Below, one piece after another: positions 22,352 to 58,820 of a DNA stretch of 64,000 nt (positions within the stretch are counted from its first letter, which is position 1; each line of letters starts with the position of its first letter). The notes below the pieces were generated by a model. That model made no database searches. It was not told the origin of the DNA and was given only the letters and a program-made list of their open reading frames with translations. This DNA comes from Escherichia coli (GTDB lineage Bacteria > Pseudomonadota > Gammaproteobacteria > Enterobacterales > Enterobacteriaceae), in NCBI RefSeq assembly GCF_003991155.1, contig NZ_CP031293.1; one strand, 5' to 3'. A program made the translations under genes and the position numbers.

Positions 22352-22460
22352 TTCCTTCTGCCGCCCGCTATCCGGGGCGGCCTTCCCTGCCGATTAGCCC
22401 CCCCTTTCCTCTTTGTTTTCCGACCACATTCACCGGATAAATTTTATTCTCCAGTGTTAT

Positions 22461-22510
22461 ATACTATAGGGGGGTATGCATTGACATATAGCATACCCCC
22501 CTATAGTATA
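22461..22510 (+). promoter_or_regulatory. frmRAB promoter embedded in FrmR operator palindrome
   Basis: Perfect 19-bp inverted repeat atactataggggggtatgc (22461-22479) / gcatacccccctatagtat (22491-22509) with G6/C6 tracts, flanking TTGACA at 22481-22486. Confidence 0.7.
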
Positions 22511-22535
22511 TTGCGTGCAGATGATGAGGTGCGAA

Positions 22536-55677: not shown

Positions 55678-55923
55678 CTACGTAATCAACCTGATTTGCC
55701 GGATCCCGACCATCGGCGATGATAGCCCCCGTAATGCGTGGTCCTTATTTCCGATAAGTTTACTTGAGTCTTTAGCTTCCCATTTCAGCCCACTCTCCCC
55801 TGTGTGGGCTTTTTTCATTGCTTTGACCCGTCCTGAATAGCCAAACAATGGCAATGTTTCACTTTGCAGGGATGATAATAAGGGGATCTGATTCAGAAGA
55901 GTTATGAAAAGTTGGACCGCCAT
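55678..55923 (-). CDS. yahM: Small uncharacterised protein YahM
   Basis: ORF-track frame to 55953; ATG at 55923 gives 81 aa MAVQLFITLLNQIPLL...; convergent with yahN (16-bp gap). Confidence 0.5.
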   Translation of the reverse strand: MAVQLFITLLNQIPLLSSLQSETLPLFGYSGRVKAMKKAHTGESGLKWEAKDSSKLIGNKDHALRGLSSPMVGIRQIRLIT

Positions 55924-56336
55924 CGAGGCCTCGAACCCCGTACCATACAACAATCCTGGTTGTCGTCTGCTCTTCCTGATGAGCTAATGGCGGTTTTTGA
56001 TATGAGCCTTACAGCATATTTTCTGTCAGGCTTGAGTGCGATACGTAAGATACAGAAAAGACCCCACACAAACATGATGGAATTATGATTTTTTTCATAT
56101 GAATGTCAACCCACACATTCACAAAACATCTGCATGAGATCATTTTTTTATACACCGTATAGCTGCGAAACCACTGCTGATGCTTTTTTAAGCGAAGCGT
56201 CGCCGATCACAACAAAATATCGGCGAAAAAGGCGGTGGAATGCCATTTGGCATACGGATATACAGATGAAATGATCACCTGCTTTGCGATTCACTCTCTG
56301 GTGGAATAACAACTCGCAGGTGGAACCCTTTCTGAA

Positions 56337-57152
56337 CTAAAGAGTGTAGCGGATTTTAACGTGCTTATTTACAGGATAATATCTGTCACCTAATTCCTGC
56401 ACTCTATTAGATATCCATTCATTTAATCGCGCATCATCTCTGTATGTTTTTACGTCCAGAACAGAGAGCAATAACCTCACCAGTGATTCAGGAAAAACAG
56501 GGTAGATATTTTTTAAGTGTAATAATAATCCATGCGCAAGCGCCTGCTTAATGGGCGCGTCGGTCTCCGGGATAGACGACATTTCGCGAAGCCATTTTTC
56601 CACATGCATACACTCTTTCCCTTTAGGGAAAAGTCTCAGCAAAGGCATATGGTGTTCAAGAAGAATACATTTGCAATCTGTTCGCACTGAATCGATAAAC
56701 TGCACTAATTTCTTAAGCCCGGTAAAGCGTCCAGCCTGCACATTTGCTTTAATATCAAGAAACGCATCATCCTGGTCATATACCCAAACTGTCCCTTTTT
56801 GATTTTCAAGTATGCGAAAAACAAACTTAACCGGGTGATCAGGGTAATCCATCCAGTCATAAAATCCAGGGAAATCATTAAACTGCACATTTATGGTGAG
56901 TGCGTTATCGTCTGACCACTCACAGTCTCGCACGGCTGCCATAAGATGAATGAGTTTGTCATCATCGACTAAATCATCACGACAATCATAAGGATAATCA
57001 TAATATTGTTTAATCAAAACCTTGAATATATCGACACAGGAAACCAGAGAGCTTTTGATATCCTCCGGTAACTGGTTGTTTTTAACCGTATTAAGTATGC
57101 TTTGTTGCGTATATGGCATCAAATTATTGTGTGGAGCTTTTAATGATATCAT
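56337..57152 (-). CDS. yahL: Uncharacterised acidic protein YahL (low-GC gene)
   Basis: 271 aa ORF with no recognisable motif; visibly AT-rich coding sequence. Confidence 0.7.
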   Translation of the reverse strand: MISLKAPHNNLMPYTQQSILNTVKNNQLPEDIKSSLVSCVDIFKVLIKQYYDYPYDCRDDLVDDDKLIHLMAAVRDCEWSDDNALTINVQFNDFPGFYDWMDYPDHPVKFVFRILENQKGTVWVYDQDDAFLDIKANVQAGRFTGLKKLVQFIDSVRTDCKCILLEHHMPLLRLFPKGKECMHVEKWLREMSSIPETDAPIKQALAHGLLLHLKNIYPVFPESLVRLLLSVLDVKTYRDDARLNEWISNRVQELGDRYYPVNKHVKIRYTL

Positions 57153-57394
57153 CGCGATCTCTCTTAAATAAAAATAAACGTCGCAGATAATAAAGCTCTG
57201 ATTAAACCAGGCACTATCAGAAATCGCTCATAACTAACGTGTGAAGTATTGTGTCCTGGAGGGAGTTAATTTAACAATTTGAATTTACGTTATAGGTTTT
57301 ACTGCTACTTTGATATTATTTCGCTCTCCTTAACTAAAAAGTTAAGTGGAGAGCGAAGTTAATATGTTAAACCACAGGATATTTATTAATTGTT

Positions 57395-58444
57395 TCAGTC
57401 TGTTAGTGTGCGATTATCGATAACAAAACGATATTTCACATCTCCTCGCAGCATTCGCTCATAGGCTTCATTAATTTGATCGGCCCGAATCATCTCTATA
57501 TCAGCCACGATGCCATGTTCGGCGCAAAAATCGAGCATCTCCTGAGTTTCTGGAATGCCGCCAATCATAGAACCGGCTATCGCACGGCGTTTCATGATCA
57601 GGTTGAAAACTTCCGGCGATTTATGCGGTGTCGCAGGCGCACCAACCAGCGTCATGGTGCCATCGCGCTTCAGCAAGGTGGTAAAATCGTCGAGATTATG
57701 TGGCGCAGCTACTGTATTCAAAATGAAATCGAAACTCTTCAGATGAGTCGCCATCTCATCGGCATTGCGTGAGTTAACAACTTCATCGGCCCCCAGGGCT
57801 TTTGCCGCTTCGCGTTTTGACTCAGACGTGGTAAACGCCACCACATGCGCCCCCATCGCGTGGGCCAGCTTGATCCCCATATGTCCCAGACCGCCGATGC
57901 CAACCACGCCCACTTTTTTACCCGGCCCGGCCTGCCAGTGACGTAGCGGCGAATACGTGGTGATCCCTGCACACAACAAAGGAGCCACCGCCGCCAGCTG
58001 CTCTTGCGGGTGACGAATACGCAAAACATATCGCTCATGAACGACGATCTGTTGTGAGTAGCCGCCCAGAGTATGGCCCGGTTCGTCCGGCGTCGGCGAG
58101 TTATAGGTGCCGGTCATGTGATCACAGTAGTTTTCCAGCCCGTCTTCACACTCTTCACAATGTTTACAACTGTCGACAATACAGCCGACACCGACCAGAT
58201 CGCCCGGCGCATGTTTTTCTACCTGATCACCAACGGCTACCACACGCCCCACAATTTCATGACCCGGCACGCAGGGGTAAACCGTCCCCGCCCACTCGGA
58301 ACGGACCTGGTGGATATCGGAATGGCAGACGCCACAGTAAGCGATTTCAATTTTGACATCATGCGGTCCCGGTTCACGCCGGGTAATATCCATCGGTTCC
58401 AGCGGTTGTTTAGCGGAATATGCACCAACAGCTCTGATCTTCAT
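57395..58444 (-). CDS. yahK: NADPH-dependent aldehyde reductase (Zn-dependent ADH family)
   Basis: 349 aa; CGVCHSDIH, GHEIVGRVVAVG; Rossmann GVVGIGGLGH. Confidence 0.9.
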   Translation of the reverse strand: MKIRAVGAYSAKQPLEPMDITRREPGPHDVKIEIAYCGVCHSDIHQVRSEWAGTVYPCVPGHEIVGRVVAVGDQVEKHAPGDLVGVGCIVDSCKHCEECEDGLENYCDHMTGTYNSPTPDEPGHTLGGYSQQIVVHERYVLRIRHPQEQLAAVAPLLCAGITTYSPLRHWQAGPGKKVGVVGIGGLGHMGIKLAHAMGAHVVAFTTSESKREAAKALGADEVVNSRNADEMATHLKSFDFILNTVAAPHNLDDFTTLLKRDGTMTLVGAPATPHKSPEVFNLIMKRRAIAGSMIGGIPETQEMLDFCAEHGIVADIEMIRADQINEAYERMLRGDVKYRFVIDNRTLTD

Positions 58445-58820
58445 TGTGTTTACTCCTGATTAGCTATGTGTATTTGGCGATGCCTGATATGTCATCGCGG
58501 CAAAACGCGTCCATTGAATATAGCCAATATTTAAACCACCCGATCCAGCCCCAACATGCCGCGAGCCTGAATGAAACAGAGCAGCAACGTTCCCCATAAG
58601 GCGAGCGCCTATAAGTGTGATATTTGCTATCCGTAAAAGACAAAAATCGGCAAAACTGATGATATTTTCACGTAGACAAATAGTTATCTACACAACGTCA
58701 ATAAGGGCATATTCTTCAAAGATAATGTCCATTTCTGCCGACACACTCATACTCAGGCCGCCCCACTCCCTGGGGCTTAAATCTCTTACTGTTCACCGTT
58801 GCAGATATATCAAGTTCGTA

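Follow-up and report, generated by a model that had tools for sequence, protein, structure and literature searches.

The RNA 3' ends left by intrinsic terminators usually lie 7-9 nt past the stem, and a canonical terminator of this kind carries a U-rich tract of 7-8 nt after a G+C-rich stem. Cuts by RNase III fall within the stem, and rut sites typically contain more C than G. Another class of RNA 3' ends was described in Rho-dependent transcripts of E. coli, in which precise 3' ends were found directly after stable stem-loops that have no U-tract (Dar & Sorek 2018, PMC6061677). In this class, transcription terminates further downstream and the tail is trimmed by PNPase and RNase II. The sequence just past the stem is rut-like, with C in excess of G, and the stems have energies like those of terminator hairpins (PMC6061677). 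In the same study, 24% of the Rho-dependent termini were associated with REP elements (PMC6061677).

Here, we analyzed a hairpin in the spacer between yahK and yahL of E. coli, using a stretch of 64,000 nucleotides that we refer to as the window. The reading that we prefer, at a probability of roughly 0.6, is that the hairpin is a protective 3'-terminal stem-loop of the yahK mRNA, with Rho terminating transcription further downstream. The 3' end at the hairpin and the nearby Rho region are already present in published tables, and elements of this kind are well described. As far as the literature shows, the hairpin itself is unannotated and has never been discussed individually in searchable publications.

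A stable stem-loop in the yahK-yahL spacer

An earlier note on this DNA had placed a long imperfect hairpin at 57320-57358, 3' of the yahK stop and 5' of yahL. The RefSeq annotation agrees with this placing. Read in the yahK sense, 37 nt separate the yahK stop from the hairpin, and a further 167 nt separate the hairpin from the yahL ATG. Gene positions were checked against the RefSeq annotation of strain 2016C-3878, which is 100% identical to the window over a 351-bp query. No annotated feature was found at the hairpin in MG1655 (NC_000913.3) or in the PGAP annotations. The features of the locus, in window coordinates and in the order in which the yahK transcript would meet them, are as follows.

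57395..58444, minus strand: yahK coding sequence, NADPH-dependent aldehyde reductase (RefSeq annotation); its mRNA ends at the hairpin
57360..57365, minus strand: 5' half of a weak A-U extension of the stem (predicted fold; 6 bp with 57313-57318)
57320..57357, minus strand: yahK 3' UTR stem-loop (fold, rank in the window, conservation)
57348-57357 with 57320-57329: outer helix, 10 bp
57346-57347: bulge, 2 nt
57340-57345 with 57330-57335: inner helix, 6 bp
57336-57339: hairpin loop, 4 nt
57313..57318, minus strand: 3' half of the weak A-U extension (predicted fold); holds the mapped RNA 3' ends
57317 (= MG1655 344011) and 57315 (= MG1655 344013), minus strand: yahK-sense Term-seq 3' ends, 3 and 5 nt past the last stem pair
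57241..57300, minus strand: C-rich, G-poor stretch, candidate rut or Rho-termination zone (composition; the published Rho peak lies inside)
56337..57152, minus strand: yahL coding sequence, AT-rich, the downstream gene (RefSeq annotation)
about 55890-56075, minus strand in the window: xtpA (MG1655 annotation, MG1655 345252-345434)

The hairpin sequence, ttcgctctccttaactaaaaagttaagtggagagcgaa, was found at 57320-57357, and the g at 57358 is unpaired. All 16 pairs are Watson-Crick, and 7 of them are G-C. The earlier note had described helices of 8 and 6 bp separated by a small bulge. The inner helix of 6 bp and the bulge, which is 2 nt long, were recovered in our fold, while the outer helix has 10 bp and not 8.

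The minimum free energy of the hairpin was -20.4 kcal/mol as minus-strand RNA (the yahK sense) and -20.7 kcal/mol as plus-strand RNA. Dinucleotide shuffles had mean energies of -5.5 to -5.9 kcal/mol (z about -6.8), and none of 200 was as stable. Since the two arms differ by an indel, the hairpin is missed by an inverted-repeat finder, and we used our own folding script instead, folding 40-nt windows in steps of 3 nt along both strands of the 64 kb. The hairpin ranked 44th of 42,642 folds (top 0.1%) and about 25th among the distinct hairpins, despite a local GC content of only 0.34-0.35. The observation that a stem-loop more stable than chance lies at this site is confirmed.

The most stable hairpin of the window lies elsewhere, at 22458-22511 (-26.8 kcal/mol). 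Its arms match perfectly as an inverted repeat with G6/C6 tracts, ATACTATAGGGGGGTATGC-N11-GCATACCCCCCTATAGTAT. The frmR start codon follows about 25 nt downstream, and the repeat looks like the operator of FrmR (CsoR/RcnR family) in the frmRAB promoter.

The GC content falls sharply across 57050-57500, from 0.55-0.60 in yahK to 0.34-0.42 over the spacer and yahL. Such a boundary fits a late arrival of yahL-yahM, specific to E. coli, and yahL serves as an E. coli-specific signature gene in PMC11057252. Between yahL and yahM, MG1655 has the small gene xtpA (b4845, 'putative transcriptional regulator'), which overlaps the start of yahM. It is called by PGAP in some genomes only, as a hypothetical protein. 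The tables of Adams et al. 2021 (PMC7815308) contain a strong 3' end at MG1655 345390 (+) and, within yahM, a Rho region at 345585. On the other side of yahK, the yahJ-yahK spacer contains a 75-bp pseudogene fragment (about 58530-58605, minus strand), which PGAP annotates in all genomes inspected as 'hypothetical protein, incomplete, missing N-terminus'.

Published RNA 3' ends map to the hairpin and a Rho region peaks downstream of it

MG1655 and the window do not differ in the hairpin or in the sequence flanking it, and the stem corresponds to MG1655 343971-344008 (+). The earlier note had proposed mapping of 3' ends as a check, and published Term-seq data were found to contain yahK-sense ends 3 and 5 nt past the stem. 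The end at 344013 (+) was detected in LB at OD 2.0 with 1132 reads (Adams et al. 2021, eLife, PMC7815308, Supplementary file 1), and the end at 344011 (+) in M63 glucose at OD 0.4 with 745 reads (PMC7815308). The flanking sequence printed for both ends is that of the hairpin. Both are classed as 'orphan / upstream of yahL', a class that they received only because they lie >50 nt from the yahK stop (PMC7815308). In LB at OD 0.4, no 3' end was called at the hairpin, and the list contains no antisense end and no other end on either strand in the yahK-yahL spacer (PMC7815308). The TERMITe supplements make no mention of yahK. The mapped ends support the hairpin as a transcript-end element.

Term-seq shows steady-state ends and not termination events (Adams et al. 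2021, PMC7815308; Dar & Sorek 2018, PMC6061677). This would suit an explanation in which the hairpin is an endonucleolytic processing site or a stable decay intermediate, independent of the point of termination, for example where a yahK-yahL co-transcript is cleaved and trimmed to the stem. The 'orphan / upstream of yahL' listing is compatible with a read-through transcript, and a long duplex, which reaches 23 near-continuous pairs in ST131-type strains, could in principle attract RNase III. However, the mapped ends lie outside the G-C stem, unlike RNase III cuts, and the Rho region called at the site argues that most transcription stops nearby. We consider processing of this kind quite unlikely. 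Its last step largely equals that of the protective stem-loop, and the two explanations differ only in where transcription stops.

The Rho termination region has its peak at MG1655 344049 (+), 41 nt past the stem and at 57279 in the window (PMC7815308, Supplementary file 2). It was called from DirectRNA-seq with and without bicyclomycin (BCM), and the upstream/downstream reads, which are low counts taken over coarse 800-nt windows, were 32/24 without BCM and 83/225 with BCM (score 3.61, p = 1.8e-5; PMC7815308). Because the downstream DNA is AT-rich, the rise with BCM may in part represent de-repressed initiation inside yahL. The growth conditions also differ between the datasets, the BCM data coming from LB at OD 0.5 and the Term-seq detections from LB at OD 2.0 and from M63. 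The 60 nt lying 20-80 nt past the stem contain 15 C and 4 G on the sense strand, and this is the stretch that holds the published peak.

The hairpin lacks the tail of an intrinsic terminator

We searched the hairpin site with a consensus terminator and promoter scan, which found no terminator and no informative promoter there. The T-tail score (d'Aubenton-Carafa-type) of the sense tail, AUAAUAUCAAAG, was 0.82, close to the median of the 15-mers of the yahK-yahL spacer, and that of the antisense tail was 1.36. An ideal tract scores 7.15, and scores of 2.7-3.8 were obtained for the terminators behind yahK homologues of two other genera. The tail after the stem, AUAAUAUC, has 3 U in 8 nt, and the hairpin has no upstream A-tract. 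The absence of a clear U-tract, which the earlier note had already remarked on, is borne out by the empty scan and by the tail score. The stem is thus not followed by the 7-8 nt U-rich tract of a canonical intrinsic terminator, and Rho independence is not what the published data point to, the site lying within a bicyclomycin-sensitive region.

The hairpin could still be a non-canonical, weak intrinsic terminator, possibly assisted by NusA or NusG, in which the hairpin frees the polymerase a few nucleotides past the stem despite the poor U-tract and Rho acts only as a back-up. In favour of this are the stability of the stem and the precise 3' ends near the base, and mixed or transitional terminators with reduced U content have been discussed by Dar & Sorek (PMC6061677). 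In addition, the yahK homologues of Enterobacter sp. BIGb0383 and Salmonella bongori are followed, at the equivalent place, by a conventional G+C hairpin with a T-tract. At the E. coli site, however, the tail scores no better than random positions of the spacer, the scan calls no terminator, the ends lie 3-5 nt past the stem where 7-9 nt is usual, and a Rho termination region has been published. Based on this evidence, an intrinsic terminator appears unlikely. The earlier note had suggested a Rho-independent-like terminator variant. The part of this suggestion that concerns the end of a transcript is upheld by the Term-seq ends, while the missing U-tract, the Rho region and the excess of C over G downstream speak against the part that concerns Rho independence.

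The hairpin is nearly universal in E. coli and occurs in three allelic forms

Of 5426 complete E. coli genomes, 5114 contain the 351-bp region. With a 55-nt query that has the hairpin at its centre (blastn, word size 11, E <= 10), about 5090 of the 5426 were matched, at a median of one place and a maximum of two places per genome. The second place in some genomes is probably the opposite-strand self-match of a perfect palindrome. Within the window, no second copy of the 16-nt arm was found at up to 3 mismatches. With one place per genome and none elsewhere in the window, the hairpin is a single-copy, locus-specific element and does not belong to a REP-like family; REP/BIME and other repeat families were rejected on this ground. 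These searches also answer two points of the earlier note. The palindrome, which it had proposed to look for elsewhere in the genome, is single-copy, and absence from close relatives, which it would have counted against the hairpin, is not seen within E. coli.

The hairpin was found to occur in three allelic forms, bulged, internal-loop and perfect palindrome, with a stable stem of -21 to -30 kcal/mol in all of them.

Bulged allele: the window, K-12 and O157; 60-nt context -22.9 kcal/mol; about 78% of matched genomes (the 100%-identical class)
2x2 internal-loop allele: Seattle 1946 and SF-088; -21.2 kcal/mol
Perfect 16-bp palindrome allele: JKHS006; -28.3 kcal/mol
Perfect palindrome with a C-to-T change: ST131-type strains (C31, Ec55); -30.2 kcal/mol; main stem joined to the A-U extension, up to 23 near-continuous pairs

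The 3' arm, AGTTAAGGAGAGCGAA, is the same in every allele, and the variation consists entirely of indels or mismatches in the 5' arm. No compensatory double changes or covariation were found among the E. coli alleles, all of which are sequences of close relatives. Conservation of the stem is weak evolutionary evidence because there are no such double changes. The hairpin and the spacer are kept in genomes that have no yahL.

We also observed that yahL is wholly absent in about one fifth of E. coli genomes (Seattle 1946, C31, JKHS006 and ST131 types). In B2-type strains, the endpoint of the deletion coincides with the yahL start codon, and yahM carries a frameshift according to the annotation.

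The perfect 16 + 16 bp palindrome of B2-type strains raises the question of a role at the DNA level, as the operator of a dimeric regulator for yahL or yahK or as a recombination or cruciform site at the AT-rich yahL-yahM edge. The site lies at the sharp drop in GC from 0.55-0.60 to 0.34, and yahL or its surroundings appear in genomic SELEX papers among the targets of CRP and several sigma factors. However, about 78% of genomes have a 2-bp insertion in one arm, which breaks the spacing of the dyad and leaves the RNA stem unharmed. The sigma-factor SELEX peak is elsewhere, at 343660 in the table of that paper, which by an estimated offset to current MG1655 coordinates is about 0.4-0.5 kb away and inside yahL. 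No CRP-like motif was seen in the hairpin by eye, and no binding data at the hairpin were found in the papers searched. The element is single-copy, the B2 deletion ends at the yahL start and not at the palindrome, and the RNA ends map exactly to the hairpin on one strand only. A DNA site is extremely improbable on these grounds, and the protein-binding palindrome that the earlier note had offered as an option finds no support in the asymmetric arms or in the literature searched.

Outside E. coli, the hairpin was not found in the contexts of the nearest YahK homologues (91%, 88% and 86% identity), and these nearest non-E. coli proteins sit in other gene contexts. The palindrome is absent both at the YahK of 91% identity and at the YahK of Salmonella bongori, and neither context is syntenic. 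When contigs were searched with YahK, the best of the matches listed was from Enterobacter sp. (88%), with no Escherichia species among them.

The absence of covariation among the alleles and of conservation at the YahK loci inspected outside E. coli would fit a chance palindrome without function, and AT-rich spacers are rich in short inverted repeats. We give this explanation hardly any credence. The shuffles and the rank in the top 0.1% of the window argue against it, the stem is kept in all three alleles, and the RNA 3' end is reproducible in two growth conditions.

A small structured RNA had also been considered by the earlier note. Rfam gave no match at E <= 10 over 56000-58600 and none in the whole window at the gathering score, which leaves this suggestion without support.

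A model for the yahK 3' end

The stem, the position of the ends, the missing U-tract, the Rho region and the excess of C over G together fit the class of Dar & Sorek, and we read the hairpin on this basis as a protective stem-loop. RNA polymerase would read through the hairpin, and Rho would load on the untranslated, C-rich RNA past it. Rho, in its presumed role at the yahK ends, would then terminate transcription diffusely in the yahK-yahL spacer or early in yahL. PNPase and RNase II would trim the resulting tail until the stem halts them, and the protected, defined 3' end may stabilise the yahK mRNA. The AT-rich, E. coli-specific genes yahL, xtpA and yahM would in this way be insulated from yahK transcription.

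The arms resemble translation signals. In the minus-strand RNA (window 57340-57357), the invariant 3' arm contains a perfect Shine-Dalgarno (SD) sequence, UAAGGAG, and the 5' arm the matching anti-SD-like CUCC(AC)UUA. This resemblance is probably a coincidence. We looked for an ORF driven by this SD sequence and rejected it. No AUG, GUG or UUG lies at a usable distance after UAAGGAG, and only AUA AUA UCA AAG UAG follows. A 19-codon ORF, MLNHRIFINCFSLLVCDYR, is present at 57365-57424 on the plus strand, antisense to the 3' end of yahK, and has a GGAG some 12 nt before its start. Several amino-acid differences among three near-identical strains, seen in an alignment read by eye, make it unlikely that this ORF is coding.

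The hairpin might also act as a conditional gate, at which read-through from yahK into yahL-xtpA-yahM is tuned by stem formation or by Rho loading. Ribosomes or 30S subunits on the exposed SD sequence would block Rho, and the degree of read-through would differ between phylogroups according to the allele (-23 kcal/mol for the bulged form, -21 for the internal-loop form and -28 to -30 for the perfect form). We regard such a gate as very unlikely.

Under the protective stem-loop reading, the yahK-yahL spacer gains a mechanistic annotation: it would mark where the yahK transcription unit ends, and would probably act as a Rho-dependent insulator that separates a core gene from an AT-rich cluster specific to E. 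coli. The site offers a clean case of a terminator-like hairpin without a U-tract, which can help in annotating operons and in training programs that predict terminators. Since yahK is widely deleted or overexpressed in metabolic engineering, an element in its 3' UTR is of some practical use. No concept is changed by the hairpin.

Comparison with known systems

Like REP/BIME elements, the yahK hairpin is an extragenic palindrome 3' of a gene, able to block 3' exonucleases. It differs from them in being single-copy and A-T-rich, and no REP consensus was seen in it by eye.

With canonical intrinsic terminators it shares a stable hairpin directly 3' of a gene and RNA ends near the base of the stem. 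In contrast to them, it has neither a U-tract (T-tail score 0.82) nor an upstream A-tract, it lies in a Rho region, and its ends fall 3-5 nt past the stem compared with about 7-9 nt. With its 16 bp, the stem also exceeds a typical terminator hairpin in length and in its share of A-U pairs, and an A-U helix extends it.

The closest likeness is to the class of Dar & Sorek. That class has trimming by PNPase and RNase II, whereas at yahK the trimming is presumed and the Rho call comes from low counts. A rise in read-through with bicyclomycin, one of the marks of the class, is present in the published yahK data, although in 800-nt windows with low counts, over AT-rich DNA and in another growth phase. 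The other marks are found at yahK as well. The hairpin has a terminator-like energy and no U-tract, the steady-state end is precise and lies a few nucleotides past the stem, and the bicyclomycin-sensitive region and the excess of C over G follow just downstream, in the 3' UTR of a weakly expressed gene.
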